DNA from: a phage
Direction: 5' to 3' (one strand)
DNA length: 64,000 bases
NCBI GenBank assembly: GCA_018027755.1
Contig: GCA_018027755.1_4098.1
Positions 27,064 through 46,343 of this stretch are shown here, piece by piece. A program made the position numbers and the translations under genes. The notes below the pieces were generated by a model that made no database searches, was not told where the DNA came from, and saw nothing but the letters and a program-made list of their open reading frames with translations. Positions within the stretch are counted from its first letter, which is position 1; each line of letters opens with the position of its first letter.

Positions 27064-27091
27064 TTGCACAGTACTGAAAAAAGCGTATAAT
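27064..27091 (+). promoter_or_regulatory. early promoter (TTGCAC-N16-TATAAT)
   Basis: -35 27064-27069, -10 27086-27091; followed by GTTTTACATC and GGGAA-CAC-TTCCC hairpin. Confidence 0.6.
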
Positions 27092-27145
27092 GTTTTACAT
27101 CGAGAGCGGGAACACTTCCCTACTCACTTTTAAGAGATTAAAACG

Positions 27146-27508
27146 ATGGCGACTCAAATCACTAAAATCATTGCTAACCTGGTTAACTTCCGCGACGATA
27201 TGAAAGATCTTCCGGCGGCAACGGTTAAAACTCACATTGACGCATACCGCGAACTGATTAAAATGCTGCCGCTTAAGCGTGAACAATACGCCGCCACCGT
27301 GATGCTTGATGCGATGATCCATAAGATGATCGCCAGTGATTTGACGATGGTTTATCAGTATATGGGCGAAAATTTCGCGGTGTATAGTAAACCAGTACCA
27401 GGAATGGAAAGTACAGAAGTATTACACGGTTTAAATTTAAAACAAGATGCATGGGATAATATGCCTCGTTTCCTGGTATGGGCTGACAGTGGCAAAATTT
27501 ACGAATAA
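27146..27508 (+). CDS. hypothetical protein (120 aa)
   Basis: ORF track; promoter + 5' hairpin upstream; E. coli-like codons. Confidence 0.65.
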   Translation: MATQITKIIANLVNFRDDMKDLPAATVKTHIDAYRELIKMLPLKREQYAATVMLDAMIHKMIASDLTMVYQYMGENFAVYSKPVPGMESTEVLHGLNLKQDAWDNMPRFLVWADSGKIYE

Positions 27509-27522
27509 GTTTTAGAAAGTAC

Positions 27523-27550
27523 TTGCAAACTAAGTTTAAAAGCGTATAAT
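27523..27550 (+). promoter_or_regulatory. early promoter (TTGCAA-N16-TATAAT)
   Basis: -35 27523-27528, -10 27545-27550. Confidence 0.6.
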
Positions 27551-27564
27551 GTTTTACATCAGGT

Positions 27565-27579
27565 GGGGAATAGTTCCCC
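27565..27579 (+). promoter_or_regulatory. 5'-proximal leader hairpin
   Basis: GGGGAA-TAG-TTCCCC immediately after predicted start site, before AGAGGA RBS. Confidence 0.5.
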
Positions 27580-27600
27580 ACTATATAAGAGGATTAAAAA

Positions 27601-27840
27601 ATGGCTAAATCAAAAATGTTCTTAGGTCACAAAAACAAAACTCATTGGAATGTAAGCCTTTGGATTAATAACGATGAGTCATTGTACCGGTTGGCCCTGG
27701 ACTTTATTGCCGCCAATACTAATCGCAATGATGCGGCCCGTCATATGATGTTATTTTTAGAACAGACTGGACAAGATAAAACACCGGACGGATTCAAATA
27801 TAGCACTACTGCGATCCGTGCGGCGATGGTTGGAATGTAA
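27601..27840 (+). CDS. hypothetical protein (79 aa), paralog of 29645..29884
   Basis: ORF track; shares GHKNKTHWNVSLWINNDESLYR and TPDGFKYSTTAIRAAMVGM with 29645..29884. Confidence 0.7.
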   Translation: MAKSKMFLGHKNKTHWNVSLWINNDESLYRLALDFIAANTNRNDAARHMMLFLEQTGQDKTPDGFKYSTTAIRAAMVGM

Positions 27841-27926
27841 TAGAATTTATTTAAAGTACTATCATTTTTTTGCGATAGTACTTTATAATAGTGTTTTATT
27901 CATACACCAACGATAAGGGCAACAGC

Positions 27927-28193
27927 ATGAATATTAAGTATTTTGCGACGCGTGAACAAGCTCGGATCGCCGCTCGCCAGGACGGGGCAACGTTTAAAGA
28001 TATGGGCGTACAATCGGAACGTGGTAAACGTTGGGCCATTGTAAAGCGTAGTACCGCCAGATCATTACAGTACTGGTTAGCGGCCTTAAAAAGTCCCGAT
28101 AGTGTATCGCGTCGAGTGGTAGAAATAAAGCTCGACCGAAAGGGCAACCGCGTGACCGTGTACCGTACTAAAAAGATTGCAGTACTTGAATAA
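27927..28193 (+). CDS. hypothetical protein (88 aa), paralog of 40612..41016
   Basis: Track ORF trimmed to ATG 27927; KYFATREQARIAAR and DRKGNRVTVY shared with 40612..41016. Confidence 0.6.
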   Translation: MNIKYFATREQARIAARQDGATFKDMGVQSERGKRWAIVKRSTARSLQYWLAALKSPDSVSRRVVEIKLDRKGNRVTVYRTKKIAVLE

Positions 28194-28200
28194 AAAGTAC

Positions 28201-28228
28201 TTGCAAACTATGTTTAATGGCGTATAAT
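28201..28228 (+). promoter_or_regulatory. early promoter (TTGCAA-N16-TATAAT)
   Basis: -35 28201-28206, -10 28223-28228. Confidence 0.6.
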
Positions 28229-28242
28229 GTTTTACATCGAGA

Positions 28243-28259
28243 GCGGGAACACTTCCCGC
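28243..28259 (+). promoter_or_regulatory. 5'-proximal leader hairpin
   Basis: GCGGGAA-CAC-TTCCCGC. Confidence 0.5.
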
Positions 28260-28281
28260 CTATAACCTGGAGTAATAAAAA

Positions 28282-28512
28282 ATGACTAATATGTATATGA
28301 CTGAAGTTAAAACCGTAAAAGATACTACCACGAATAAAACTACTTACTTACAGCGGATCTGCGGTGTATGGCAACGTATCAGCAAATCAAAGTACTTTAA
28401 ATTAACATCATATGCAAATCGTTCGGATTCATTCAGTACTGAAATAAAAGGTAATAAAGTACACCAATACGGCACTTATTATTATTACAGCCTGGACGCG
28501 ATTGCAGTATAA
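28282..28512 (+). CDS. hypothetical protein (76 aa)
   Basis: ORF track; GGAG RBS. Confidence 0.6.
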   Translation: MTNMYMTEVKTVKDTTTNKTTYLQRICGVWQRISKSKYFKLTSYANRSDSFSTEIKGNKVHQYGTYYYYSLDAIAV

Positions 28513-28545
28513 TCATATTTTTTGAAAAATTTACAATTGCCGGTA

Positions 28546-28574
28546 TTGACTTATTTTGTCAGTACTGGCATAAT
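28546..28574 (+). promoter_or_regulatory. promoter (TTGACT-N17-CATAAT) driving an ORF-less unit
   Basis: -35 28546-28551, -10 28569-28574; downstream about 150 nt carries motif-1 and motif-2 and ends in a T-run. Confidence 0.45.
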
Positions 28575-28792: not shown

Positions 28793-28801
28793 GTTTTACA
28801 T

Positions 28802-28881
28802 CAGGACGGGGAACGAAATAAGTAACTTCCCGTTAAGTAGCCCAGGAGTAAGGCACACGAAAAACTCCCCTGATAAAATAG
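28802..28881 (+). ncRNA. candidate about 80-nt leader/small RNA element, copy 1
   Basis: CAGGACGGGGAACGAAATAAG...CTCCCCTGATAAAATAG between promoters P1 and P2; second copy at 39430..39508 before an unrelated gene. Confidence 0.35.
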
Positions 28882-29554: not shown

Positions 29555-29566
29555 TTTAAAAAGTAC

Positions 29567-29594
29567 TTGCATACTAAGTTTAAAAGCGTATAAT
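29567..29594 (+). promoter_or_regulatory. early promoter (TTGCAT-N16-TATAAT)
   Basis: -35 29567-29572, -10 29589-29594. Confidence 0.6.
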
Positions 29595-29607
29595 ACTTTA
29601 TATCGAG

Positions 29608-29626
29608 GCGGGGAGTGGTTCCCCGC
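29608..29626 (+). promoter_or_regulatory. 5'-proximal leader hairpin
   Basis: GCGGGGA-GTGGT-TCCCCGC. Confidence 0.5.
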
Positions 29627-29644
29627 TCAAACGAGGATTTAAAA

Positions 29645-29884
29645 ATGGCTAGTACTAAAACTTATAACGGACACAAAAACAAAACTCATTGGAATGTAAG
29701 CCTTTGGATCAATAACGATGAATCATTATACCGGATTGCTCAAAATTGCATCGCACAAAGTAGAACTAAAGATATTGCTGCGGAATGTATGTACCGCAGA
29801 TTAAAAGCCAACGGTACTACTACAACGCCGGACGGCTTTAAGTATAGCACTACTGCGATCCGTGCTGCAATGGTTGGAATGTAA
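29645..29884 (+). CDS. hypothetical protein (79 aa), paralog of 27601..27840
   Basis: Track ORF trimmed to ATG 29645 after GAGGA RBS. Confidence 0.7.
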   Translation: MASTKTYNGHKNKTHWNVSLWINNDESLYRIAQNCIAQSRTKDIAAECMYRRLKANGTTTTPDGFKYSTTAIRAAMVGM

Positions 29885-29941
29885 TATTCAGTACTGAGAT
29901 AATGGCGGGTAATAGTTCCCGCCTTTACTGAGGGTTATCTA

Positions 29942-30202
29942 ATGAGTAAAGTAATTAGCTATACAGCACTAAGCAAGACATTATCTATTAGCCAGTGCAC
30001 CGATGGTTATTGGCTATTTGATGAAACGCGTGGCATGAATTTAGCCATGCGTGCAAAAACTGCTGAGGCGGCGTATCTTGAAGCATTGGAATACTACCAG
30101 GAACGTTTAAAGGAAGTAGAAGAAGATTATAAAAGCCTCAAAGCGAAAGTAGATCATTTCGTCGGTCAATTCATCGAGGAAGACGACGACAAACAATATT
30201 GA
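29942..30202 (+). CDS. hypothetical protein (86 aa)
   Basis: ORF track; GAGGG RBS; leader hairpin upstream. Confidence 0.6.
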   Translation: MSKVISYTALSKTLSISQCTDGYWLFDETRGMNLAMRAKTAEAAYLEALEYYQERLKEVEEDYKSLKAKVDHFVGQFIEEDDDKQY

Positions 30203-30210
30203 AAAAGTAC

Positions 30211-30238
30211 TTGCAATTAGTTTTCAGTACTGTATAAT
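30211..30238 (+). promoter_or_regulatory. early promoter (TTGCAA-N16-TATAAT, TG-extended)
   Basis: -35 30211-30216, -10 30233-30238. Confidence 0.6.
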
Positions 30239-30250
30239 GGTTTACATCAA

Positions 30251-30270
30251 AGGGAGAAATGGTTCTCCCT
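30251..30270 (+). promoter_or_regulatory. 5'-proximal leader hairpin
   Basis: AGGGAGAA-ATGG-TTCTCCCT. Confidence 0.5.
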
Positions 30271-30288
30271 GGTAATGAGGAAAATAAA

Positions 30289-30510
30289 ATGGCTAATATC
30301 ACTACTCTTTCCCAACTGGAAGCACTGGTGAAATCTATGCGGGAACATGCCGACAAAATCGGCGTACAAGATCCAGCCGTTTGCTTCTGCGACGAATTGA
30401 ATGATGATACCCTGGTAATAGCAGAAGTCCAGGACGTTTCTAACTATTCCTCGCGTTACACTGGCGGCGTAGCAAATAAAGGCGACTTCTGTTTATACCT
30501 TACAAAATAA
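30289..30510 (+). CDS. hypothetical protein (73 aa)
   Basis: Track ORF trimmed to ATG 30289 after GAGGAAAA. Confidence 0.6.
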   Translation: MANITTLSQLEALVKSMREHADKIGVQDPAVCFCDELNDDTLVIAEVQDVSNYSSRYTGGVANKGDFCLYLTK

Positions 30511-30600: not shown

Positions 30601-30678
30601 TCGTCTTGATGTAGTAATTATGCCAGTACTGGATGCACTTGTCAACAACTATTTTTCAAATACTTTTTATTAAAATAC

Positions 30679-30706
30679 TTGCAATTAGTTTTTAAACGCG
30701 TATAAT
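30679..30706 (+). promoter_or_regulatory. early promoter (TTGCAA-N16-TATAAT)
   Basis: -35 30679-30684, -10 30701-30706. Confidence 0.6.
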
Positions 30707-30716
30707 GTTTTGCATA

Positions 30717-30733
30717 GGGGGAGCGGTTCCCCC
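30717..30733 (+). promoter_or_regulatory. 5'-proximal leader hairpin
   Basis: GGGGGA-GCGGT-TCCCCC; identical leader reused at 31039. Confidence 0.5.
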
Positions 30734-30754
30734 TGGTAACTAAGGAATAATAAA

Positions 30755-30991
30755 ATGCTTGAACAAATCAAATCAACGACTTCGAATGTAACGGGAACGG
30801 TAGCACACTTTACTAGTGATGAATCGCGGGGCGTACCCTATTGTGCTGTACATGTAAACACTGATGGCAACTACTGGTTTACTGTTTACGGATCATATTC
30901 CTTTGGACGACCAGGGCATCAAAAAATTCTGGATAAAGTACAGCCAACGGGTAAAAATATCACTGCTGAAATGTTTTATAAAAAATCATAA
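30755..30991 (+). CDS. hypothetical protein (78 aa)
   Basis: ORF track; AAGGAA RBS. Confidence 0.6.
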   Translation: MLEQIKSTTSNVTGTVAHFTSDESRGVPYCAVHVNTDGNYWFTVYGSYSFGRPGHQKILDKVQPTGKNITAEMFYKKS

Positions 30992-30996
30992 AGTAC

Positions 30997-31024
30997 TTGA
31001 TAATAGTTTTTAGTACTGTATAAT
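30997..31024 (+). promoter_or_regulatory. early promoter (TTGATA-N16-TATAAT, TG-extended)
   Basis: -35 30997-31002, -10 31019-31024. Confidence 0.55.
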
Positions 31025-31038
31025 ATTTTACATCGCAA

Positions 31039-31055
31039 GGGGGAGCGGTTCCCCC
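31039..31055 (+). promoter_or_regulatory. 5'-proximal leader hairpin
   Basis: GGGGGA-GCGGT-TCCCCC. Confidence 0.5.
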
Positions 31056-31075
31056 TGGTAACTAAGGATAATCAA

Positions 31076-31375
31076 ATGAAAATTGCAATCATCGCCCTGG
31101 CTTTATCTGTTTCCTCTTTCGCTGTTAATGCGTCATTAGATGTAAGTAGTGAAAAATTCATTCAGTGCACTGTTGCAATGACCGATGAAAGTACTGGCGA
31201 GATTGTATTAAAGGATTTAGAGATCAAGCCGGAAGCATTTAAAAACGGCCCGTTCCATGAAGAAGACGAAAACGGTAGTACAACAATTTATTATGATGCC
31301 AGTACTAAACGCGGTTCGGTCACTGTAATGGATACTGAGAAAGTAACTCATACTGGCGTTATTAATTGCCGTTGA
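31076..31375 (+). CDS. small secreted/periplasmic protein (signal-peptide-like N-terminus)
   Basis: ORF track; MKIAIIALALSVSSFAVNAS.. hydrophobic leader. Confidence 0.6.
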   Translation: MKIAIIALALSVSSFAVNASLDVSSEKFIQCTVAMTDESTGEIVLKDLEIKPEAFKNGPFHEEDENGSTTIYYDASTKRGSVTVMDTEKVTHTGVINCR

Positions 31376-31663: not shown

Positions 31664-31861
31664 TAGTATCGTAGTACTGAGATACTTTGAAAATAGTTTT
31701 AAGAAAGTAGTTGACATTACCGCAGAAAAGCGTAGAATGTATTACATCAAGACGGGGAGCACTAAGTAGACCGCCAGTAAGTCGAACGAAAAACTGGACA
31801 CGTCGAGAAAACTTTGATACACTAACCAACGTAAACTAAACTTTAATTGAGGATTTATAAA

Positions 31862-32842: not shown

Positions 32843-33070
32843 ATGGCTATCGTAATCGCTTATGTAACTGGTACTACTGGCACTTCTTCTACTGTTGCTG
32901 TAATTACCAACAAGAAAGGTGCGGAATTACATTCTGCAATGGATACCTGGGCGGTAAATGAGTTCGGTCAGTGGGCAAGTGTAGCATATGTTGAAACCTA
33001 TCAAGTGCCAACCATTAGCTTAACGGATCTCGGTGTAGATCGTATCCTTTGCCTGGATGAATTAAATTAA
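32843..33070 (+). CDS. hypothetical protein (75 aa)
   Basis: ORF track; TAGGAA RBS. Confidence 0.6.
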   Translation: MAIVIAYVTGTTGTSSTVAVITNKKGAELHSAMDTWAVNEFGQWASVAYVETYQVPTISLTDLGVDRILCLDELN

Positions 33071-33157
33071 AAAAGTACTTGCAAAGTAAGTTGGATAAAG
33101 TATAATACATTACATCAAGGGGAGAAAATGGTTCTCCCCACTAAGAGGAAACTAAAA

Positions 33158-33301
33158 ATGAAAACTTGTCAATGTGGTAAAAAATCTATTACTGGTTTGA
33201 AACGGGGCGTTGCTCTTTGTCAGTATCACTATAACGCTCAGGTATGGGGTAAAGAGTGGGCCGACCAGGTGGAAGCAGTAAAGAAAGCAAAAAGTAAGTA
33301 A
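33158..33301 (+). CDS. small Cys-containing protein (47 aa), possible zinc ribbon
   Basis: Below track cutoff; promoter + leader hairpin + AGAGGAAA RBS; MKTCQCGKK...CQYHY. Confidence 0.45.
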   Translation: MKTCQCGKKSITGLKRGVALCQYHYNAQVWGKEWADQVEAVKKAKSK

Positions 33302-33382
33302 AATTATTATCACAGTACTATTGACATAGATTGATAGTACTGGCATAATAGATTTTATCAAGACAACTAAGAGGAAACAATA

Positions 33383-33595
33383 ATGGCTATCATCACAAAA
33401 ATCAAAGTAAACAAATCACTGGTTAAGCTGGAAGAAGTGAAAGAAGGTTATAAAGTATCGTGGTGCGGCATGTATCGGATTTTTACAGATGTTGACGATG
33501 CAATCAATTACTACACTGACACGGTAAAAAACTTTGTTCGTGCTGATGTGGTTATGGCAGTGGCAACACACAAAGCATCGAAAGAAAGTAAGTAA
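33383..33595 (+). CDS. hypothetical protein (70 aa), paralog of 36530..36709
   Basis: ORF track; MAIITKIK..; shared upstream promoter sequence with 33677 and 36530 genes. Confidence 0.6.
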   Translation: MAIITKIKVNKSLVKLEEVKEGYKVSWCGMYRIFTDVDDAINYYTDTVKNFVRADVVMAVATHKASKESK

Positions 33596-34700: not shown

Positions 34701-34910
34701 ATGCTTACTGTACAGGATAAGATCGACATCTTAAAGGTTAATATGTATGTGATTGATGCAGTACCTGGTAAAGTATTTGCATACGATGACAGTACTGTAA
34801 GCGATTTCTACTATAGCCAGGACGTGGGGGATCTTTCTGTACAGTCGGTTATTGAAAACGTAGTTAATGCAGCGTATGAGCATTTACTTTCAAATAGTAC
34901 TTGCAATTAG
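34701..34910 (+). CDS. hypothetical protein (69 aa)
   Basis: ORF track; starts 5 nt after upstream stop. Confidence 0.55.
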   Translation: MLTVQDKIDILKVNMYVIDAVPGKVFAYDDSTVSDFYYSQDVGDLSVQSVIENVVNAAYEHLLSNSTCN

Positions 34911-34979
34911 TTTTTAAACGCGTATAATGTTTTACATGAAGGGGAGAAATGATTCTCCCCACTAATTAAGGAATATGAA

Positions 34980-35126
34980 ATGAAAGCATCAAAAAAGAGT
35001 AATACTAAGAAAGCACGTTCAACCTTAGATGGGGTATTCCCTTTACGTTTCGTTGATGAAGTAGTTTCCTACCCGCCGGGCCTTACTCCTGAGATGGTAG
35101 AAAGTTTGCGTAAATCTAAAAAATAG
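34980..35126 (+). CDS. hypothetical small protein (48 aa)
   Basis: Below track cutoff; promoter + leader hairpin upstream. Confidence 0.4.
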   Translation: MKASKKSNTKKARSTLDGVFPLRFVDEVVSYPPGLTPEMVESLRKSKK

Positions 35127-35207
35127 TACTTGCAATTAGTTTTCAGTACTGTATAATAGTTTACATGAAGGGGAGAAATGATTCTCCCCAATAACAGGAG
35201 AAACAAA

Positions 35208-35360
35208 ATGAAACAATACAACGCTCGGTTTGATGTTACTATCGGTAACGGCAAAGGTCAATTCTCTTTCAGTACTCGCCGCAGTTATACAGAAAACTTC
35301 CTGCGTAATTGTGCACTGACCGCCGCACAAATTAAACATTACTTCCAGGCTAAAAAATGA
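35208..35360 (+). CDS. hypothetical small protein (50 aa)
   Basis: Track ORF trimmed to ATG 35208 after CAGGAG RBS. Confidence 0.5.
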   Translation: MKQYNARFDVTIGNGKGQFSFSTRRSYTENFLRNCALTAAQIKHYFQAKK

Positions 35361-35672: not shown

Positions 35673-35795
35673 TATTATATAAGTATTGAGTACTGAAAAC
35701 TATTTTTAAAAAGTACTTGCAAACTATCTCAATTGGCGTATAATGTTTTACATCGCAAGGGGAAACGGTTTCCCCTGGTAATAAGGAAACAAATC

Positions 35796-36137
35796 ATGAC
35801 TATCTCAATTGCTCAATCTAACTTTGAAAATGAAATCATCGCCCAGGCACTGCGTTTAAATGATGGTCGGGCCGAAATTAATTACGGTTTCAATTCAGGC
35901 GGTTGTGAAAACTATCAGTACTTTGTAACGGCTGATGGCGGTGTCCTGGGTATCAATACAGTTATTGTAAACATCCAAAAAATTAATTTCAATGATCCAG
36001 ACGATAGCCAGTTTTACATTGTAGGCGTAGACGTGAACTATGAGGATGACTCACTAACTGATGATCACACTGGCGAGCGGTTAGAAAGTGCATACGGTGA
36101 AGATGATTATCAGTCCGGTCCAGAAGATTTCGAATAA
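35796..36137 (+). CDS. hypothetical protein (113 aa), acidic C-terminus
   Basis: Track ORF trimmed to ATG 35796 after AAGGAAAC. Confidence 0.6.
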   Translation: MTISIAQSNFENEIIAQALRLNDGRAEINYGFNSGGCENYQYFVTADGGVLGINTVIVNIQKINFNDPDDSQFYIVGVDVNYEDDSLTDDHTGERLESAYGEDDYQSGPEDFE

Positions 36138-36233
36138 TATAAAAAAATAGTTTGACAATAGATTATAGTACTGTATAATAGTTTACATCAAGGGGAGAAA
36201 AACTTCTCCCCACTAACAGAGAGAGAAAACAAA

Positions 36234-37586: not shown

Positions 37587-37844
37587 ATGGCAGTAGGATA
37601 CGCGAAAGACGGGGCCGAACAAGACGAGATTCACGCAGTGATTCAGGCCGCCGTTAACCACGCTAGAAAGCAAATTAACGCACAAAGAGAATCACTGGTA
37701 CATTGCCTCGACTGCGGCGATAAAATCCCTGAGAATCGACGCCAGGCCGTTATAGGGTGCATGTATTGTATTACTTGCCAGGAGGATCATGATAGTACTT
37801 TTAAAAGAGATCCGCGTAATTGTTGGCATAGATCTATGAGATAA
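37587..37844 (+). CDS. TraR/DksA-family C4 zinc-finger protein
   Basis: INAQRESLVHCLDCGDKIPENRR....CMYCITCQ matches TraR-type CxxC-N17-CxxC pattern. Confidence 0.65.
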   Translation: MAVGYAKDGAEQDEIHAVIQAAVNHARKQINAQRESLVHCLDCGDKIPENRRQAVIGCMYCITCQEDHDSTFKRDPRNCWHRSMR

Positions 37845-37907: not shown

Positions 37908-38264
37908 ATGGGAATACAACATATCACGCGTACTACTGACAATGGAGAGATCACTGGTTATCAGGTACAGGGCAAAGTAGCACAATTGCAGTACTGGTTT
38001 GTTAAACGTGGAATCATTGCACCGGATCTTGATTATGACCGTGTAGCGTTTATTGATTCTCTTTATGTTGATCCTGATAGTCGGGGCAATGGTGAAGGTA
38101 ACGAATTAATGAATGCCTTTATTGATGCCGCCGGTGATTCAGATTGTATCATCTTAGAATGCGATACGGGAGAAGATAACGCCTTTAATCTTAAAGAATG
38201 GTACGAAGGTTTCGGATTCGAGGTATTGATAGATAGTGAATATCCTATCATGATTTTATCATAG
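37908..38264 (+). CDS. GNAT-family N-acetyltransferase-like protein
   Basis: IDSLYVDPDSRGNGEGNELM resembles GNAT acetyl-CoA motif (V-x-P-x-x-R-G-x-G); promoter upstream. Confidence 0.45.
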   Translation: MGIQHITRTTDNGEITGYQVQGKVAQLQYWFVKRGIIAPDLDYDRVAFIDSLYVDPDSRGNGEGNELMNAFIDAAGDSDCIILECDTGEDNAFNLKEWYEGFGFEVLIDSEYPIMILS

Positions 38265-38336
38265 TACTTGCATTTAGTTTTCAGTACTGTTATAGTACTT
38301 ACATCAAGGGGAAACGTCTTCCCCTACTAAGAGGAA

Positions 38337-38531
38337 ATGAAAATGGAAAACTTATCAAGTATTTTAGTACAAGATGATTTTGGCAATCCTGGTAGTGCTA
38401 TCATTGTTCGGGGTAATAAAGCAACGTTTGTTATTGCTGGTGGGCCAGTACAGCGTAGCATTAAAAATAATGCTGTTACCATTAATAATGTACGCTATCG
38501 CTTAGATAAAGAATTGATTCATAAACTTTAA
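38337..38531 (+). CDS. hypothetical protein (64 aa)
   Basis: ORF track; leader hairpin + AGAGGAAA RBS. Confidence 0.6.
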   Translation: MKMENLSSILVQDDFGNPGSAIIVRGNKATFVIAGGPVQRSIKNNAVTINNVRYRLDKELIHKL

Positions 38532-38615
38532 AAAGTATTTGACAATAGATTATAGTGCTGTATAATAAGTTACATGAAGGGGTGAAATGATTCTCCCCAC
38601 TAAGAGGAAAGAAAA

Positions 38616-38828
38616 ATGCAAGGTCAACTAATCGTTCGTAAATGGTCTGATACTAACGAAAAACCGTGGGATGTACAATACATCGGACCGGATGGGGTAT
38701 CACGTTATCAGCCTGGCGTAACGCATAGTACTGAGCAATTCGCAAACGCTCACCGCGAACGCCTGTTAGAATCCATGAAACAGGGATTCTGTGAAAAATT
38801 CATTCAAGATCATTGGCTGAAAGATTAA
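38616..38828 (+). CDS. hypothetical protein (70 aa)
   Basis: ORF track; leader hairpin + AGAGGAAA RBS. Confidence 0.6.
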   Translation: MQGQLIVRKWSDTNEKPWDVQYIGPDGVSRYQPGVTHSTEQFANAHRERLLESMKQGFCEKFIQDHWLKD

Positions 38829-39261: not shown

Positions 39262-39303
39262 TGAAAAAGGGATTGACACCGGTCAGTCCCTTTGCTATTA
39301 TAT
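39262..39303 (+). promoter_or_regulatory. composite element: A-run + hairpin overlapping TTGACA-N17-TATTAT promoter
   Basis: AGGGATTGAC-ACCG-GTCAGTCCCT; -35 39273-39278, -10 39296-39301. Confidence 0.5.
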
Positions 39304-39345: not shown

Positions 39346-39429
39346 TATTGTTTGCTGGTGGCTAGTACTGAAAACTATTTTTAAAAAAGTACTTGCATTG
39401 TACTTAGAATCAAGTATAATGTTTTACAT

Positions 39430-39508
39430 CAGGACGGGGAACGAAACAAGTAACCCCGTTAAGTAGTCCAGGAGTAAGACATACGAAAAACTCCCCTGAT
39501 AAAATAGT
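39430..39508 (+). ncRNA. candidate about 80-nt leader/small RNA element, copy 2
   Basis: Near-identical to 28802..28881, again between tandem promoters. Confidence 0.35.
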
Positions 39509-39569: not shown

Positions 39570-39845
39570 ATGCGGATTCTACTGACAGCTAACGAAATCG
39601 AACAAGTACTGACTACTAACCTGGAAGACTGGAAACGTGAAGCAGATATCCAGGCGGTTCAATGGCTTAACGATAAGTTAACGCCGGATGACTTAAGCAA
39701 GATTGTAGATCCTCAATTCTACGAAGATATTCACGACACCGCGTTAAGCGTCGAGGATGTACTTGATAAGCACTACATTGATACTGATTTACATGTTTAC
39801 GGTCGTAAAAACTTTATCACTATTCACGACATTTACAATACTTAA
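39570..39845 (+). CDS. hypothetical protein (91 aa)
   Basis: ORF track; AAGGAAAC RBS. Confidence 0.6.
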   Translation: MRILLTANEIEQVLTTNLEDWKREADIQAVQWLNDKLTPDDLSKIVDPQFYEDIHDTALSVEDVLDKHYIDTDLHVYGRKNFITIHDIYNT

Positions 39846-39932
39846 GTATTGACAAAGTATCTTAGTACTGTATAATAGTTTACATCAAGGCGGGGAAATG
39901 GTTCCCCTCCTAACTAAAAGAGAGAAATTAAA

Positions 39933-40115
39933 ATGGCTAAGTGCACTATCTGTAAGAAAGAAATCGTATTAGTTCCAAGTGCCCGTGAACGTGCCGCTCG
40001 GTTCGGTGGCAAAGCGTCAGACTATACAAAAATGTTTACTGCCCATGCAGATTGCCAGGTAGCAAAACGTTCACAAGAAAGCGTAGAATTAATGCGTAAA
40101 CTTTCCAAAAAATAA
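39933..40115 (+). CDS. small Cys-containing protein (60 aa)
   Basis: ORF track; MAKCTICKK...HADC; promoter + leader hairpin. Confidence 0.55.
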   Translation: MAKCTICKKEIVLVPSARERAARFGGKASDYTKMFTAHADCQVAKRSQESVELMRKLSKK

Positions 40116-40201
40116 GTATTGACAAAGTATCTTAGTACTGTATAATAGTTTACATCAAGTGAGGGGAAACGGTTCCCCTCCTAACAGAGAGAGAAATAAA
40201 A

Positions 40202-40525
40202 ATGGCTATGATCCTTACCCAGAAAGTGGAATTGAAAATTGTAACCTCCTTTGACATTAAAGTTAATCGCTGGACTGATCGGAACGGCAATACTTACCAC
40301 TCTTGCTACGTGTCTGCATTGATTGGTGATCGTTGGGAAGACCTGGGACACGAAACTTTTACATACGGTTACGGTACGCAAGGCGAATACACGGGCTTGG
40401 AGATCATTAAAGAAACCGTTATAGGTTTCAACCCGAAAGAAAAAGTTATTCACCGCATCGAAAAAGAGATTAACAAAGAAATAACAGTTCGCTACTACGA
40501 TGTAAAACGTAAGAAAGACATGTAA
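40202..40525 (+). CDS. hypothetical protein (107 aa), paralog of 33677..34021
   Basis: ORF track; C-terminal DVKRKKDM. Confidence 0.65.
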   Translation: MAMILTQKVELKIVTSFDIKVNRWTDRNGNTYHSCYVSALIGDRWEDLGHETFTYGYGTQGEYTGLEIIKETVIGFNPKEKVIHRIEKEINKEITVRYYDVKRKKDM

Positions 40526-41936: not shown

Positions 41937-42521
41937 ATGCGTAATTATACTAAATTCATCCGTACACTGTCAGAAATGGAAACCAACAAAGAGATCCTTT
42001 CAGCTTGTCGGTTAGCTGGCCTGGAGATCATCGGTGCTGGTTCTTCCCGTATAGTATTCGCTTTAAATGATCGGTTAGTGATTAAGGTCGCGAATTGTGA
42101 TGCGGGTGTCGAACAAAATGAAACTGAATGTAAGGTATGGAATTTTTTAGACTATGACCGCCCTCAGTTGAAACAGTACTTTGCAAAGGTGCATATGCAT
42201 TTATGCGATCCTGATAATATGTTTATCGTTATGGATCGGTTGAGTACTGCAAGCAAAGGCAGTGTGAAGCACGTTAACGCGTGCAATGAATTAAAGTACA
42301 ATATTAAACGTAATGCAATCGAACGCCAGCACCGCTTTGCTGATGCACTACAACACGTTGATGATACATTATCAACACTAACGATAAGAGATATCAGAAA
42401 ACAGAATATCGGCCAGGATCGTAATGGCCTTATTAAAGTACTTGATTACGGTTTAACCCGCAATATCTGGAATCAGTACTATAAAAAGCGTGATGTGGCA
42501 GCAAGTAAGGTAACACGATAA
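41937..42521 (+). CDS. protein-kinase-like protein (194 aa)
   Basis: Track ORF trimmed to ATG 41937 after AAGGAG; IIGAGSSRIVF (Gly loop), VIKV, IRDIRKQN, KVLDYG resemble kinase motifs. Confidence 0.45.
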   Translation: MRNYTKFIRTLSEMETNKEILSACRLAGLEIIGAGSSRIVFALNDRLVIKVANCDAGVEQNETECKVWNFLDYDRPQLKQYFAKVHMHLCDPDNMFIVMDRLSTASKGSVKHVNACNELKYNIKRNAIERQHRFADALQHVDDTLSTLTIRDIRKQNIGQDRNGLIKVLDYGLTRNIWNQYYKKRDVAASKVTR

Positions 42522-42592: not shown

Positions 42593-42617
42593 GACCCATA
42601 GGGTGCGGAAGTGTATC
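42593..42617 (+). repeat. motif-1 copy
   Basis: GACCCATAGGGTGCGGAAGTGTATC. Confidence 0.5.
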
Positions 42618-42742
42618 TATTATATAAGTATTCAGTACTGAAAACTATTTTTAAAAAAGTACTTGCATTGTACTTAGAATCAAGTATAATGTTTTATATC
42701 GAGAGGGGGAAATGGTTCTCCCTGGCAATAAGGAATAAAATC

Positions 42743-42964
42743 ATGACTACAATGACTTGCATTTACGCTTCCAATCGTCTGAATGATGCGGCCTTTAATG
42801 TTGATTCAGAATATCAATGTTATCGGGATGAAAATAAAAAAGTTTTTGTAGTTGATAATAATGGTTTCCATATTGAATTACAATCCGGCTTCACTGGTGT
42901 TGATGGTAAATCAGTATGGGGCGTACAGGATGATAAAGGTACATATCATTTTAAACGTAATTAA
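42743..42964 (+). CDS. hypothetical protein (73 aa)
   Basis: Track ORF 42611..42964 trimmed to ATG after promoter, leader hairpin and AAGGAA RBS. Confidence 0.55.
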   Translation: MTTMTCIYASNRLNDAAFNVDSEYQCYRDENKKVFVVDNNGFHIELQSGFTGVDGKSVWGVQDDKGTYHFKRN

Positions 42965-43048
42965 GTATTTGACAAAGTATCTTAGTACTGTATAATAGTT
43001 TACATCAAGGGGAGAATAGTTCTCCCCGATACTAAAAGGAATAAAATC

Positions 43049-43456
43049 ATGACTACTACCAATCAAGCTCGGAACATCACCAACGATAAAAATCATGCTG
43101 CAATGGTCGCTGGTTACATTGAAGCTATGCAATTCAGTACTGTACACAATGAGAACGGCGAATACCTGGAAGATTATGAATTATCAGAGCAAGCCCATCA
43201 AGCGGCAGTGATTGCATGTTCACGTTTCCTTGCTGTACATGGTGAAGATATGGAAACAGTACAAAAACACCATAATCCTGATTATACTTATAGTCATGCA
43301 GGTCATGATCTCTTTCTTACTCGCGAAGGTCACGGCACTGGTTTTTGGGATCGTGATATCGGTCACTATGATGATATATTCACTAAGTACTGCGAAGAAA
43401 TCAACGTTTGCGATCCCTATGTAGGCGATGATAATCTAATCTATATGGGCGAATAA
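43049..43456 (+). CDS. hypothetical protein (135 aa), His-rich
   Basis: ORF track; leader hairpin + AAGGAA RBS. Confidence 0.6.
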   Translation: MTTTNQARNITNDKNHAAMVAGYIEAMQFSTVHNENGEYLEDYELSEQAHQAAVIACSRFLAVHGEDMETVQKHHNPDYTYSHAGHDLFLTREGHGTGFWDRDIGHYDDIFTKYCEEINVCDPYVGDDNLIYMGE

Positions 43457-43544
43457 AAGTATTTGACAAAGTATATCAGTACTGTATAATAGTTTACATC
43501 AAGGGGAGAATAGTTCTCCCCCACCAATAAAAGGAAACAAAATT

Positions 43545-43817
43545 ATGTCCAGCTACTCCGCTACTATGATCATTAAAGATATGAACGGTAATCCTACTTC
43601 TGCTGGTGGATCATTTGGAAACATTAATTTAGATGGGCGGTTATCCATGCAATCAGCCATCGATACAGCGAAAGAAGTTTTTAAGAATGAATGTACTGTA
43701 AGCAAGCTGGATTATATGGGATTCGCTATCGAGAAAACTAATCGTTTTGTGAACTACAAAAATCCACTGATGATTGATACTAACCTGAAAGCTAACGAAG
43801 TGGAATACTTATTATGA
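43545..43817 (+). CDS. hypothetical protein (90 aa)
   Basis: ORF track. Confidence 0.6.
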   Translation: MSSYSATMIIKDMNGNPTSAGGSFGNINLDGRLSMQSAIDTAKEVFKNECTVSKLDYMGFAIEKTNRFVNYKNPLMIDTNLKANEVEYLL

Positions 43818-44005
43818 CAGTTGAAGAAGTTAAAAAAGTACTGGCAGTACTACGCTATCATAATCATTGCAAGGTGAAGAATGATCCTGATTATCTCGAT
43901 TCATCCCTGGAAGAGGATACACTACAAGCAATAAGCCATATGCAAAAAATGCTTAAGCGTATGACCGAAAAGAATAGACCGGACTATATCGGAAATAAAA
44001 TTTAA
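43814..44005 (+). CDS. hypothetical protein (63 aa)
   Basis: ORF track; ATGA overlap. Confidence 0.55.
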   Translation: MTVEEVKKVLAVLRYHNHCKVKNDPDYLDSSLEEDTLQAISHMQKMLKRMTEKNRPDYIGNKI

Positions 44006-44091
44006 AAAGTACTTGCATTGTAGTTAGATTAACGTATAATGTTTTATATCGAGAGGGGAAATGGTTTCCCCTCAAGTCCAGGAGATACACC

Positions 44092-44355
44092 ATGAACACT
44101 ATCGAAATCACTATCAATGCACACGTATACGACAACGTAGTACTGCAAACTACTATGACCGCTAATGATACCAGTACTTTGCGGAATACTGTTATTAGTG
44201 CCGTATGTGCTGCAATCGGTGATGTTGCCCTGGAAAATGCAGAACATATCAACAACGGTTTCACTATGTGCAAACGTGATAACGCAAAACATATCATCGT
44301 GGAAGGTTACGGCGGTGTAGAATTTAATGTTTATATGAAAAAAGTATTTGCATAA
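44092..44355 (+). CDS. hypothetical protein (87 aa)
   Basis: ORF track. Confidence 0.6.
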   Translation: MNTIEITINAHVYDNVVLQTTMTANDTSTLRNTVISAVCAAIGDVALENAEHINNGFTMCKRDNAKHIIVEGYGGVEFNVYMKKVFA

Positions 44356-44422
44356 TAACTAAAACAAAGTATAATGTTTTGCATAGGGGGAGATATCCTC
44401 CCCCACTAAAAGGAGTAATAAA

Positions 44423-44647
44423 ATGGCTAACTTTGATGAACTGATGCGGGAAGTAGCTACCCTGGCAGAAGAGAAGAAATCATTCGATTCTATCTATAAC
44501 ACCTCTTACCGTGATTCAGTACTGGCATGTACTCAGGATCAAAAAGATGAACTAATCGCCACATATCATGAAGCATGGAAGTACTACCGCCAATGGGAGA
44601 AAGAAGAAAGCGAGTCTACCATCAACGGCATCAATAATCTAATCTAA
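44423..44647 (+). CDS. hypothetical protein (74 aa)
   Basis: ORF track. Confidence 0.6.
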   Translation: MANFDELMREVATLAEEKKSFDSIYNTSYRDSVLACTQDQKDELIATYHEAWKYYRQWEKEESESTINGINNLI

Positions 44648-44723
44648 AAGTTTTATTTCAGTACTATTGACATAGCTTGATAGTACTGATGTAATAACTT
44701 TACTAACTACAAGGGGAAACATA

Positions 44724-44981
44724 ATGGAACAGTTCACACAATATCGGGTAAATCCTCAAGCTATGGCCTACGTAGAAGACCATAAAACGTTACCAGTACT
44801 GCAACCAGTTAAAGGCCATATCTATCGTGCAATGTCGTGGAGTACGGCCCAGGATGGCTATAAAACCGTAGCTGTCGGTATGTACTGCGGTAATGGTGAA
44901 TGGTTTGATCCAAATAATCCGGTCGCCGTTGACAGTACTGAAAAAATGAAATGGGCCGACTACATCGAAGATATTTCATAA
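44724..44981 (+). CDS. hypothetical protein (85 aa)
   Basis: ORF track. Confidence 0.6.
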   Translation: MEQFTQYRVNPQAMAYVEDHKTLPVLQPVKGHIYRAMSWSTAQDGYKTVAVGMYCGNGEWFDPNNPVAVDSTEKMKWADYIEDIS

Positions 44982-45071
44982 AAACTATTTGACAGTACTA
45001 ACCAGTAATGTATAATGTTTTACATAGAGCGGGGGAATAGTTCTCCCGCCAATAGTTTGGAGTAAAACATT

Positions 45072-45272
45072 ATGTCTATCGCTATCGCCCTGGTTGAAGT
45101 ACTGAAAGAAGCTAAAGCCAACCTTATCGATGTACAGATTAAGGAATTGCAAAACGGCTTAATCGGCTGCACTTGTACCGCTGGCGGTGCGGCAGACTAT
45201 CGAGAACACGAATCACTCGAATCACTGGTTCGGTATCTTACCATGATCGTTGATGATTGGAGAATCATCTAA
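45072..45272 (+). CDS. hypothetical protein (66 aa)
   Basis: ORF track. Confidence 0.55.
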   Translation: MSIAIALVEVLKEAKANLIDVQIKELQNGLIGCTCTAGGAADYREHESLESLVRYLTMIVDDWRII

Positions 45273-45285
45273 CAAAAAAAGAATA

Positions 45286-45327
45286 AAAAAAGGGATTGAC
45301 TCCGGTCAGTCCCTTTGCTATTATATA
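45286..45327 (+). promoter_or_regulatory. composite element: A-run + hairpin overlapping TTGACT-N17-TATTAT promoter
   Basis: -35 45297-45302, -10 45320-45325. Confidence 0.5.
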
Positions 45328-45343
45328 CGCATAGACAAAAACT

Positions 45344-45368
45344 AGCCCACAGGGTGCATAAGTGTATC
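45344..45368 (+). repeat. motif-1 copy
   Basis: AGCCCACAGGGTGCATAAGTGTATC, followed by a GCTGGTGG octamer. Confidence 0.5.
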
Positions 45369-45519
45369 CAAAATATATAGTTAATAACGGTGAGTAACTA
45401 TCTGCTGGTGGAGTGAAAACTATTAATAAAAAAAGTATTGACAAAGTATATCAGTACTGCGATAATGTATCTCGTAGGGCGGCAATGGTGCGACGGCCCA
45501 CAAAGTTAGGAGATTCAAA

Positions 45520-45852
45520 ATGACTACTTCAATCGCTATCGTTAAAGCTTTCATCCGTACTAATGTTTCCTCTGTATTCATCGACGGCCTCGACCGTAAC
45601 GTAGAATACTCAATCATTATCGCACAAACGGCAAACGGTTCTCGGTACATCCTTAATGATAGTGAAGCAAATCACTACTACTTCACTAAAGCCACTGGCT
45701 TTAAACGCATCGATGCTGATGTAGTATACGCTAAGATGAATAAGCTGGTAGATAAGATTAACGCTAAAGGTACTATAGATTTACAGTACTGGACCGAAAC
45801 CGATCCAGAATATGGATCTCACCGCTACCTGAATCCAGGTATTAAAATGTAA
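45520..45852 (+). CDS. hypothetical protein (110 aa)
   Basis: ORF track; AGGAG RBS. Confidence 0.6.
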   Translation: MTTSIAIVKAFIRTNVSSVFIDGLDRNVEYSIIIAQTANGSRYILNDSEANHYYFTKATGFKRIDADVVYAKMNKLVDKINAKGTIDLQYWTETDPEYGSHRYLNPGIKM

Positions 45853-45941
45853 AAAGTACTTGCATAGTACTTAGAATCAAGTATAATGTTTTACATAGAG
45901 AGGGGGAAATGGTTCTCCCTCCTAAATTAAGGAGTTTTATC

Positions 45942-46343
45942 ATGACCTTCTCAATCAATTCCTTCGCTGACGTTTTAGTACTGGCTCGGACTTTCGGTAA
46001 AGATGCACTGGAGTACGCTGTAAGTAATGGTACTATCCAACCGGAACAGTGCCGCATCATTGGAAACTGCAAACGTTGGGCGGTATCCAATACTATTGCA
46101 CTGGAAAACTTCCACGATGGCAACAATGAATATTCTGTTGATGTAGTATTCGAAGCCGTTGATCTCGGCGGTATCTATAATACTAACCTGAATGATGTGC
46201 GTATCGTTCGCACGGGGTTCGGTGCTTATGATGTATCTATTCGTGAAGCTATGAACACCGGATACATTAGCAAGGACTTACTTGCTCACATCATGCAGCT
46301 GTGTACGGAACGTAACGAAGCACGTACTATCTTAGGGCTGTAA
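45942..46343 (+). CDS. hypothetical protein (133 aa)
   Basis: Track ORF trimmed to ATG 45942 after AAGGAG. Confidence 0.6.
   Translation: MTFSINSFADVLVLARTFGKDALEYAVSNGTIQPEQCRIIGNCKRWAVSNTIALENFHDGNNEYSVDVVFEAVDLGGIYNTNLNDVRIVRTGFGAYDVSIREAMNTGYISKDLLAHIMQLCTERNEARTILGL

Follow-up and report, generated by a model that had tools for sequence, protein, structure and literature searches.

Putative PeSL-type early-expression cassettes with a stem-loop in the transcribed leader, in the predicted terminal repeat of an Asteriusvirus jumbo phage

The closest described counterparts of the elements treated here are the promoter-early stem-loops (PeSLs) of the T4-like phages RB49/phi1, T4/PST and KVP40/nt-1 (Arbiol et al., 2010, PMC2839356; Comeau et al., 2014, PMC4122927). 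In these phages the stem-loop is located between the -35 and -10 boxes or overlaps the -10 box (RB49), or lies just upstream of the promoter (PST, nt-1), and it is treated as a terminator; the formation of excised mini-circles is a further trait of the class. In the Rak2-like phage CBB, RpoD-like promoters with an UP-like element precede short hypothetical open reading frames (ORFs), some of them in the terminal repeat (PMC5259590). The present analysis concerns a stretch of 64,000 nucleotides of phage DNA (GenBank assembly GCA_018027755.1, contig GCA_018027755.1_4098.1), hereafter the window, in which an original prediction had flagged the interval 27064-46000 as a block of early genes, nearly every one preceded by a near-consensus promoter, a conserved start region and a 5'-proximal hairpin. 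The units found there are read as PeSL-type mobile early-expression cassettes whose stem-loop has been relocated into the transcribed leader, where it would serve as a probable mRNA boundary or insulator. This reading as a whole is given a probability of roughly 0.55; the identity of the units is held more confidently than the boundary role of the hairpin.

Between positions 27000 and 35000 the window is 91-95% identical to the Asteriusvirus jumbo coliphages phAPEC6, SHEFM2K, A4 and UE-S1, and on this homology its source is an Asteriusvirus (a phAPEC6/121Q-like Escherichia coli jumbo phage). The annotated direct terminal repeat (DTR) of phage vB_Ec-M-J, 1-21525, matches window 25395-25983 with its first 600 nt and reaches about 46773 with its end:

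25395-46773 (+): predicted DTR, by homology to vB_Ec-M-J; contains all cassettes.

The flagged interval would accordingly lie inside a predicted repeat of about 21 kb. The Klebsiella relative fENko-Kae01 (Kae01) has a PhageTerm-defined DTR of 19.7 kb with 50 small + strand genes in a similar style, and the first-expressed genes of SPO1 and T5 are located in their terminal repeats. The proposal of an early-gene module is upheld by this homology to annotated DTR DNA in relatives.

Cassettes and their leader hairpin

A consensus scan identified 12 perfect (12/12) TTGACA-N16/17-TATAAT sites, every one on the + strand between 26.5 and 46.4 kb. A regular-expression scan with manual curation listed 43 near-consensus + strand promoters in the block, and the repeat as a whole has about 45 near-consensus sigma-70 promoters on this strand. 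Read 5' to 3', a cassette of about 95 bp begins with A/T-rich DNA ending in AAAGTAC (the sequence upstream of the promoter is AAAAAGTAC(T) and includes AGTACT), followed by TTGCAA, TTGCAT or TTGACA, a 16-bp spacer, TATAAT, gttttac and ATCAA, ATCGAGA or ATAGA. The hairpin that follows this start region has a G-rich 5' arm and a C/T-rich 3' arm around a loop of 3-5 nt; between it and the ATG lie 16-25 A-rich nt with a Shine-Dalgarno (SD) sequence. The spacer, predicted at 16-17 bp, is 16 bp long in 22 of the 23 units with an uninterrupted stem. The start motif claimed as conserved is indeed enriched, since GTTTTACATC with at most one mismatch has 23 matches in the window against 8.4 +/- 3.2 in shuffles, 17 of them on the + strand at 27.0-45.9 kb; the exact decamer, however, occurs only six times, and the consensus is nnTTTACATC/ATA. 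The distance from the -35 box to 'ATC' is constant at 35 nt in the 16-bp and 17-bp spacer classes alike, and is likewise 35 nt in RB49 promoters with a matching start region. Because of this constancy transcription is placed as starting at the A of ATC(AA), which would leave 5 unpaired nt (mode; range 1-9) at the 5' end ahead of the stem.

The window has 32 Watson-Crick hairpins with a stem of at least 7 bp, at least four GC pairs and a loop of 3-6 nt, while shuffled sequence has 1.6, about a 20-fold excess. The promoter-start-hairpin units are present at the predicted positions far above chance. An uninterrupted G-rich stem of 6-9 bp starts 8-15 nt (mode 12) past the -10 box at 23 promoters, and two further promoters carry weakened stems (27064, 5 bp; 38539, one T.T mismatch). 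'Nearly every gene' was too generous: of roughly 50-55 genes about 25 have the hairpin ahead of them, and of some 45 promoters about 25 are followed by it. A set of 109 promoter-linked hairpins with 50 distinct arm pairs was compiled for covariation analysis from seven loci, namely the window, three Asteriusvirus relatives, Kae01, the phAPEC8-like phage inny (Justusliebigvirus) and the rV5-like phage W70 (Vequintavirinae). Throughout this set the distance from stem to ATG is 16-25 nt; in 22 of the 109 units the stem is offset by 8-10 nt from the -10 box, leaving at most 4 unpaired 5' nucleotides (e.g. 30679, 44348). The loops comprise 24 different sequences. GTTC, which had been assigned to the loop, is present in 13 of 23 units but spans the loop and the 3' arm.

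When 16 leaders were folded from the inferred start to the AUG, each gave a single hairpin, with energies from -11 to -16 kcal/mol and z from -1.2 to -3.7, and the SD and AUG were unpaired in all 16. A covariance model of the hairpin alone (R1), built from a gapless seed, gave 24 matches on the + strand, all within 27.5-46 kb, and nothing convincing across the other 45 kb of the window. Whole-unit MAFFT alignments (A1, A2) were dropped, as the stems fell out of register and the RNAalifold consensus was meaningless. Rfam yielded no match at the gathering threshold in the whole window, and only sub-threshold chance hits at E<=1 on the block. A scan of IMG/VR with TATAATGTTTTACATC returned 72 loci, mostly chance matches in unrelated contigs with few jumbo relatives, and was left unused.

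Some loops contain an ATG (aATGg; 30259, 33128, 35178, 45909) that is sometimes in frame, so that mechanical ORF calls begin inside the hairpin. These ATGs were rejected as real starts, since only some loops have one and their frame relative to the downstream ATG is inconsistent. The SD-supported starts of these units are 30289, 33158, 35208 and 45942, and as a rule for annotation the true start codon would lie 16-25 nt past the stem and not at the loop ATG.

The cassettes of the window are listed below, with 5' arm, loop and 3' arm of each hairpin in brackets.

27052-27148 (+): cassette, -35 27064; weakened hairpin 27108-27120 (GGGAA cac TTCCC, 5 bp); ATG 27146; 8-bp stems in the 121Q and SP27 orthologues.
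27511-27603 (+): cassette, -35 27523; hairpin 27562-27582 (GGTGGGGAA tag TTCCCCACT); ATG 27601.
28189-28284 (+): cassette, -35 28201; hairpin 28243-28259 (GCGGGAA cac TTCCCGC); ATG 28282.
29555-29647 (+): cassette, -35 29567; hairpin 29607-29627 (GGCGGGGAG tgg TTCCCCGCT); ATG 29645.
30199-30291 (+): cassette, -35 30211; hairpin 30251-30270 (AGGGAGAA atgg TTCTCCCT); ATG 30289.
30667-30757 (+): cassette, -35 30679; hairpin 30715-30735 (TAGGGGGAG cgg TTCCCCCTG); ATG 30755; flanks a gene missing from 121Q.
30985-31078 (+): cassette, -35 30997; hairpin 31038-31056 (AGGGGGAG cgg TTCCCCCT); ATG 31076; the SP27 orthologue has a AGGGGAAA/TTTCCCCT stem before a 99% identical gene.
33067-33160 (+): cassette, -35 33079; hairpin 33119-33139 (GGGGAGAA aatgg TTCTCCCC); ATG 33158.
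34889-34982 (+): cassette, -35 34901; hairpin 34941-34960 (GGGGAGAA atga TTCTCCCC); ATG 34980.
35118-35210 (+): cassette, -35 35130; hairpin 35170-35189 (GGGGAGAA atga TTCTCCCC); ATG 35208; GGGGGGAA/TTCTCCCC in orthologues, i.e. an A-U pair turned into G.U.
35705-35798 (+): cassette, -35 35717; hairpin 35758-35776 (AGGGGAAA cgg TTTCCCCT); ATG 35796.
36140-36236 (+): cassette, -35 36152; hairpin 36192-36211 (GGGGAGAA aaac TTCTCCCC); ATG 36234.
38256-38339 (+): cassette, -35 38268 (17-bp spacer, TATAGT); hairpin 38307-38325 (AGGGGAA acgtc TTCCCCT); ATG 38337.
38527-38618 (+): cassette, -35 38539; hairpin 38579-38598 with one T.T mismatch (GGGGTGAA atga TTCTCCCC); ATG 38616; perfect stem in 3/3 orthologues.
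39837-39935 (+): cassette, -35 39849; hairpin 39892-39907 (GGGGAA atgg TTCCCC, extendable via a C.T mismatch); ATG 39933; gene missing from UE-S1 and 121Q.
40107-40204 (+): cassette, -35 40119; hairpin 40161-40180 (GAGGGGAA acgg TTCCCCTC); ATG 40202.
42651-42745 (+): cassette, -35 42663; hairpin 42704-42723 (AGGGGGAA atgg TTCTCCCT, internal G.U); ATG 42743.
42957-43051 (+): cassette, -35 42969; hairpin 43009-43027 (GGGGAGAA tag TTCTCCCC); ATG 43049; 85% identical to a cassette of W70; gene 43049-43456 missing from UE-S1, 121Q and SP27.
43451-43547 (+): cassette, -35 43463; hairpin 43503-43521 (GGGGAGAA tag TTCTCCCC); ATG 43545.
44001-44094 (+): cassette, -35 44013; hairpin 44053-44073 (GAGGGGAAA tgg TTTCCCCTC); ATG 44092; in SP27 a different cassette (GCGGGGGAA/TTCTCCCGC) stands before the 97% identical orthologue.
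44336-44425 (+): cassette, -35 44348; hairpin 44386-44404 (GGGGGAG atatc CTCCCCC); ATG 44423.
44977-45074 (+): cassette, -35 44989; hairpin 45029-45049 (GCGGGGGAA tag TTCTCCCGC, internal G.U); ATG 45072.
45848-45944 (+): cassette, -35 45860; hairpin 45900-45921 (GAGGGGGAA atgg TTCTCCCTC, internal G.U); ATG 45942.
29896-29931 (+): hairpin without recognisable promoter (GGCGGG taatagtt CCCGCC), about 20 nt before ATG 29942; right-hand breakpoint of a gene replacement versus 121Q; element also in W70.
33309-33385 (+): example of a hairpin-less sister cassette (TTGACA-17-CATAAT, leader ATCAAGACAACTAAGAGGAAA).
28883, 32547, 32781, 33615, 36466, 36737, 37851, 39509, 40548, 45438: -35 positions of further hairpin-less cassettes.
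39266-39301 (+): example of a composite terminator/promoter; hairpin AAAGGGATTGACaccgGTCAGTCCCTTT holds the -35, then a T run and TATTAT.
35588, 42533, 45289: other composite terminator/promoter copies.

The flanks of the hairpin insertion point are homologous in both cassette classes, ATCAAg-ACAACTAAGAGGAAA in the hairpin-less sisters and ATCAA[hairpin]ACTAAGAGGAAA in the others, and the hairpin therefore behaves like an optional insert of 20 nt.

Constraint on the stem as RNA

For pair counting, 47 of the 50 distinct arm pairs were aligned arm to arm (A5). In this alignment, changes on both sides occur at 9/9 pairs, and 27 further pair types are found where shuffles give 17.6. Covariation scores 0.524 in the alignment and 0.211 in shuffles, with 0 of 500 shuffles reaching the observed score, and it drops to 0.11-0.20 when the partner is slid by 1-3 columns. 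G.U pairs outnumber U.G pairs by 25 to 2, and a search permitting any single mismatch found six G.T and zero A.C in the stem core. As A.C is the wobble of the antisense strand, the tolerance of G.T and not of A.C is a strand-specific (RNA) signature; the purine-rich arm, moreover, is always the 5' arm on the coding strand. Together with the constant position, the covariation and the asymmetry between G.U and A.C point to a selected RNA structure. The check originally proposed, a covariance model with compensatory base changes, thus came out in favour of a structured 5' leader, with every pair covarying and the model matches confined to the block.

Gene-anchored refolding of 53 orthologous leaders in UE-S1, 121Q and SP27, an unbiased test, showed an altered inner stem in 13; of these 13, 9 still fold into a perfect stem of 7 bp or more, against the 6-29% expected from random substitutions, and part of this effect comes from the exchange of one intact cassette for another. 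This procedure replaced a position-by-position mapping of the stems, in which 19 pairs appeared 'broken' and 9 kept; the 'broken' calls are tentatively attributed, in the main, to changes in loop length and to cassette swaps. Per-site divergence across 52 orthologous cassettes is 0.000 for the -10 box, 0.029 for the -35 box, and 0.038 for the stems; loops reach 0.081 and third codon positions 0.064. The 5' leader hairpin is preserved as a structure of the sense RNA, under a constraint that is real but moderate.

Exchange of cassettes, relatives and the surrounding repeat

Colinear BLAST chains of 26.8-46.7 kb against UE-S1, 121Q and SP27 revealed 17 distinct indel or replacement events across the three comparisons. 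Both ends of 10 of these events lie at most 15 bp from a cassette, against 1.6 expected by random placement (P<5e-5; cassettes span 20% of the compared region). In a typical event 'cassette-gene-cassette' stands opposite a single cassette, and the alignment blocks overlap by 45-119 bp on the shorter genome; examples of shuffled window genes are 30755-30991, 34980-35126, 39933-40115, 43049-43456 and 44092-44355. Two of the remaining events (33395/33585, 41389/41583) are located at repeated promoter units outside the cassette list. Hairpin-less cassettes mediate indels too (N-N events), and recombination therefore needs homology and not the hairpin. Cassettes are also swapped before genes that are 97-99% identical (31076 and 44092 in SP27), and orthologous genes alternate between hairpin and hairpin-less cassettes. 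Judging from these alignments, recombination between cassettes is behind most gene gains and losses among close relatives. The original prediction, whose leader RNA structure and early module stood and whose universality did not, had overlooked this mobile PeSL-type unit of about 95 bp.

BLAST of 42600-46400 returned short intergenic matches in W70 and inny, and small ORFs at these loci are headed, in the order known from the window, by a consensus promoter, an ATC/ATA start, a G-rich hairpin, an SD and the ATG. Their stems are more diverse, for example GGCGGTGG/CCACCGCC, GGGCGGCA/TGCCGCTC and GCGGGAAG/TTTCCCGC. The hairpin model also matches inny and Kae01, and in the latter leader hairpins occur along with hairpins that overlap the -10 box, such as TTGACAcataacGGGGATATgaTACAATATCCCC. 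By direct reading, RB49 cassettes and the window share AAAAAGT-TTGACA, gCATAAT and ATCAAGACGAGA at equal offset; the common string, TTGACA-17-gCATAAT-6 nt-ATCAAGACGAGA, is closest for the hairpin-less and small-RNA-type promoters of the block. As far as these matches go, the cassette is common, partly at the sequence level, to RB49 (T4-like), rV5-like, phAPEC8-like and Klebsiella jumbo phages. The searchable literature held no description of PeSLs outside T4-like phages, and three aspects appear to be new: a leader stem-loop with covariation at the RNA level, the location in the DTR of a jumbo phage and the sharing over four lineages. The 63-codon gene 43814-44005 has counterparts of 79-89% nucleotide identity in many rV5-like phages (Vequintavirus-type and 131-161 kb in size; the matches include records labelled Campylobacter phages), a similarity that indicates recent gene flow between jumbo and rV5-like coliphages.

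The PeSL concept, a portable promoter and stem-loop that shuffle orphan genes, would thereby extend beyond T4-like phages to the Rak2-like jumbo phages and, as the design and part of the sequence agree, to coliphages of the rV5-like and phAPEC8-like groups. The finding suggests that unrelated phages of one host trade early-gene 'expression plugs' from a common stock, and it would explain the high variability of the terminal-repeat early block in these jumbo phages. The cassettes might also provide compact, very strong and naturally insulated promoter-leader-RBS (ribosome-binding site) parts for E. coli.

The genes beneath the Asteriusvirus matches are annotated 'hypothetical protein' throughout, in UE-S1, 121Q and SP27 as well. 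Among 10 proteins of the block that were tested, only two passed the Pfam thresholds, and a third gave a weak match:

37587-37844: DksA/TraR-type zinc finger protein (E 3.7e-9).
37908-38264: GNAT acetyltransferase (E 5e-9).
41937-42521: kinase-like ORF (weak, sub-threshold).

These recognisable proteins fit an early, host-directed role and are candidates for host takeover; the T-rich discriminator of the promoters (GTTTTAC) may bear on DksA-type control. Just ahead of the first hairpin cassette, near the point within the predicted DTR at which the coding strand changes, is a tandem direct repeat of about 52 bp (26935-27045; ggattgattcagtactgaataatagt.c.cctatatagaaaga). Immediately past the right-hand boundary predicted for the DTR, from 46845-48000 onward, starts a series of small paralogous genes (MRILTKEQ..., MKMRILNKEE...) that resembles the array 3' of the DTR in Kae01. 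The window contains no detected tRNA genes.

The palindrome AGTACT (ScaI site) occurs 280 times in the whole window against 21.6 expected (13-fold), most strongly in 20000-48000; 48001-52000 has three sites and 56001-60000 none, and the top hexamers are CAGTAC and GTACTG. UE-S1, 121Q and Kae01 show a 14-19-fold enrichment, and sampled regions of inny and RB49 have 0 sites against 8-16 expected. All 8 sites of W70 are inside a 1.5-kb block with jumbo-type cassettes, a clustering that suggests transfer from a jumbo phage into W70. The literature searched did not pair 'AGTACT' with 'jumbo'. Left of the DTR, hairpins of the type GCCAGTAC-aga-GTACTGGC or GCCAGTA-tcaag-TACTGGC, built around an AGTACT-related motif, recur on both strands at 5159-18502 between minus-strand paralogous genes, which in the UE-S1 annotation are RCC1 or 'chromosome condensation'-like.

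Two further repeats of the block may correspond to small RNAs. A second repeat family in the DTR (+ strand 28600, 35650, 37319, 39323, 42595, 45346; - strand 30588, 28668, 26727, 26511) consists of a sigma-70-like promoter, its -35 often in a terminator hairpin (AAAGGGATTGACnccgGTCAGTCCCTTT), about 22 nt, CCCAYNGGGTGC and then ataagtgtatct. No ORF follows, copies 28600(+) and 28668(-) converge, Rfam gives no match, and the products may be small RNAs of about 50 nt. A long conserved leader (ACATCAGGACGGGGAACGAAATAAGTAACTTCCCGTTAAGTAGCCCAGGAGTAAGGCACACGAAAAACTCCCCTGATAAAATAGT) at 28793-28880 and 39421-39508, with a variant at 31739-31850, is transcribed from a hairpin-class promoter and directly followed by a second TTGACA-16-TATAAT promoter; its tail is also found in W70, and it may be a small structured RNA.

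Role of the hairpin and comparison with known elements

The shift of the stem-loop into the transcript raises the question of what the PeSL stem-loop actually does. With modest confidence, the leader hairpin probably acts as a boundary or insulator. Host RNA polymerase would read the near-consensus sigma-70 promoter of each cassette, and the hairpin would separate neighbouring cistrons by holding a pyrimidine-rich (anti-SD-like) CU segment paired and leaving the RBS open. The RBS would thereby be independent of its context, on its own transcript and on upstream read-through RNA alike, and the folded end left after processing in AU-rich promoter DNA may resist exonucleases. This role is favoured because all positional variants fall between the upstream stop codon and the downstream SD, in sense RNA and with the RBS open.

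Several points weigh against this reading. Predicted SD accessibility falls from 0.76 to 0.54 without the 5' arm and equally, to 0.56, with a shuffled 3' arm, so the support for an insulator is non-specific; by the same result an anti-SD switch, in which removal of the 5' arm frees the 3' arm, finds no specific support. The stem-loop of RB49 PeSL211/210 reportedly cut downstream lacZ as strongly as rrnB T1, with no obvious U tract (PMC2839356), so that on sequence alone a terminator or attenuator function here keeps some likelihood. The 89.6% of paired positions in the covariation set is partly a matter of construction, as the units were selected for a stem, which does not apply to the diversity of pair types, and part of the 'compensation' is wholesale cassette conversion and not point covariation. 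The stem is lost in 4 of the 53 orthologous leaders, which makes the constraint a moderate one. About 20 promoters of the block have no hairpin, so that it is not essential for early expression, and the proposed stem-loop on every early mRNA does not hold up against these promoters and the switching of orthologues between cassette classes. Finally, the literature on phAPEC6, Sharanji, fENko-Kae01, rV5 and CBB reports host-type promoters at most, with no mention of hairpins and no transcript maps.

A classical 5'-terminal stabiliser, in which the hairpin would block RppH and the 5'-end sensor of RNase E and early mRNAs would outlive host mRNAs, is doubtful. It would suit the location of the hairpin within the first ~25 nt of the inferred transcript, the stability of the folded stems and the minority of units (22/109) with at most 4 unpaired 5' nucleotides. 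T4 Srd stimulates RNase E. Stabilisation, however, reportedly requires a stem within about 2-4 nt of the end, as Emory, Bouvet and Belasco are said to have found in 1992, and the inferred start leaves a tail that is mostly longer. A Srd homologue is encoded by rV5-type phages that share the design (PMC3606486), which speaks for stabilisation; against it, 2-3 unpaired nucleotides suffice for RppH-type enzymes (PMC3997798), and a simple stem-loop that stands orthogonal to the scanning path of RNase E is one that the enzyme 'can readily bypass' (PMC9943677). The latter finding also led to the rejection of the hairpin as an obstacle to RNase E scanning, and RNase E protection as originally suggested fits poorly on both counts, the unpaired tail and the bypass. 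The homologous stem-loops of RB49 and Kae01, being upstream of the start site, cannot be a 5' cap.

The originally proposed function of PeSLs, an attenuator or terminator of upstream read-through that keeps promoter strengths from adding up along the array, is unlikely here. The lacZ effect in RB49 argues for it, as do the head-to-tail arrangement of the cassettes, with up to 8 promoters between canonical terminators, and the lineage-dependent position of the stem-loop (in the promoter, over the -10 box or in the leader), which suits RNA arriving from upstream. The 3' flanks of the stems, however, read ACUAAGAGG, UGGUAAC (ACTAAGAGG, TGGTAAC) and similar and have no U tract, none of 25 leader hairpins passed a terminator scan, and a terminator 3' of its own promoter would stop its own transcripts before the gene. 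Canonical terminators, a hairpin with a T run, are present besides (n=8: 30515, 31634, 32366, 35588, 39266, 41039, 42533, 45289), four of the eight fused to a -35. From these features a role as intrinsic terminator is unlikely for the leader hairpin itself.

A recognition element for a trans-acting RNA-binding protein or nuclease that switches the early class, comparable to T4 RegA/RegB or lambda N-boxB, appears less likely still. The apex sequence is kept (GGGAA-N3-5-UUCCC, loops mostly ending in G), the polarity of the arms is constant over four phage lineages infecting the same hosts, and the position relative to promoter and RBS is fixed. Set against this are inny stems without the GGGAA core (GGCGGUGG/CCACCGCC, GGGCGGCA/UGCCGCUC), the 24 different loops, which diverge faster than the stems, and the many early genes that miss the element; the block has neither a boxA nor an Rfam match, and no candidate binding protein was identified. 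It is conceivable, if rather improbable, that the hairpin is the handle of a shared post-transcriptional control of early genes, by which a host factor or an exchanged phage protein would time translation or decay, or a mark that spares early mRNAs from phage-induced decay of host mRNAs. This idea draws on the G-rich 5' arm, the GGGAA/UUCCC-type apex and the fixed distances to start and RBS, kept in four or more lineages of large virulent enterobacterial phages that are unrelated to one another. Two further explanations are very remote. As a DNA element, the inverted repeat could be the palindromic operator of a dimeric repressor or, as a cruciform or hairpin, a hot spot of recombination; its site directly behind the promoter would suit a roadblock repressor, and indel ends do cluster in cassettes; yet the half-sites covary rather than hold one sequence, G.T is tolerated and A.C is not, the purine-rich arm is always on the coding strand, homology of about 95 bp is enough for recombination, and hairpin-less sisters mediate indels as well. 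That the hairpin has no function and is a mere passenger of cassettes spreading by duplication and gene conversion is just as hard to sustain. Cassettes have clearly been copied and converted, neighbouring genes are driven by hairpin-less ones and decayed copies exist (27064, 38539; 4/53 orthologues); however, four lineages maintain the pairing with different sequences, orthologues that have changed remain paired far more often than expected at random, and stems evolve more slowly than loops and third codon positions.

Among known RNA elements, the leaders of ompA, papA and T7 gene 10 combine a stable GC-rich 5' hairpin with an open RBS on highly expressed mRNAs. The leaders described here are of the same build, and the T7 phi10 leader (GGGAGACCACAACGGUUUCCC) resembles GGGGAAACGGUUUCCCC; the ompA, papA and T7 hairpins, however, start within about 2-4 nt of the 5' end, whereas the inferred tail is about 5 nt (1-9) here and at most 4 nt in a minority. 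REP elements and hairpins of the malE-malF and puf type are GC hairpins between cistrons that can bar 3' exonucleases after endonucleolytic processing. They too stand without a U tract between adjacent cistrons of multi-gene transcripts, but unlike the hairpins of the cassettes they are not coupled to a promoter at a fixed distance. The nut boxA/boxB of lambda and the put sites of HK022 are small promoter-proximal hairpins in early phage transcripts. They share with the present elements a small hairpin just downstream of an early promoter; here, in contrast, the loops are not conserved and dozens of copies each precede their own short gene, not one copy per operon. No boxA-like sequence was found in 25-47 kb, and with variable loops and no Rfam match nut-like antitermination was rejected; the original suggestion of an antitermination signal finds no support for these reasons and because each gene has its own promoter. 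RNase III sites of the T7 type need a duplex of about 20 bp or more, and the stems here fall short of this with 6-9 bp, or 11-12 bp at most when extended across a mismatch.

At the level of the whole block, the terminal redundancy of SPO1 and the pre-early region of T5 are early or host-takeover modules with many small ORFans, strong host-type promoters and RBSs. The block resembles these modules and that of CBB in its small ORFans with strong host-type promoters in a terminal or early region; the descriptions of SPO1, T5 and CBB report no conserved leader hairpin and no cassette shuffling. In the PeSLs, as here, AT-rich DNA lies ahead of a sigma-70 early promoter close to consensus, and a G(n)-loop-C(n) stem-loop and the SD and ATG of a small ORFan complete the design; the units measure about 100 bp, occur in many copies in a hyperplastic region and bound the indels between close relatives. 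A classical PeSL-like placement is found in the block as well, where the -35 lies inside a terminator hairpin (35588, 39266, 42533, 45289). Unlike in the PeSLs, the leader stem here starts 8-15 nt past the -10 box, at about +6 to +25 within its own transcript and with no U tract, and the array resides in a Rak2-like jumbo phage, within the DTR.

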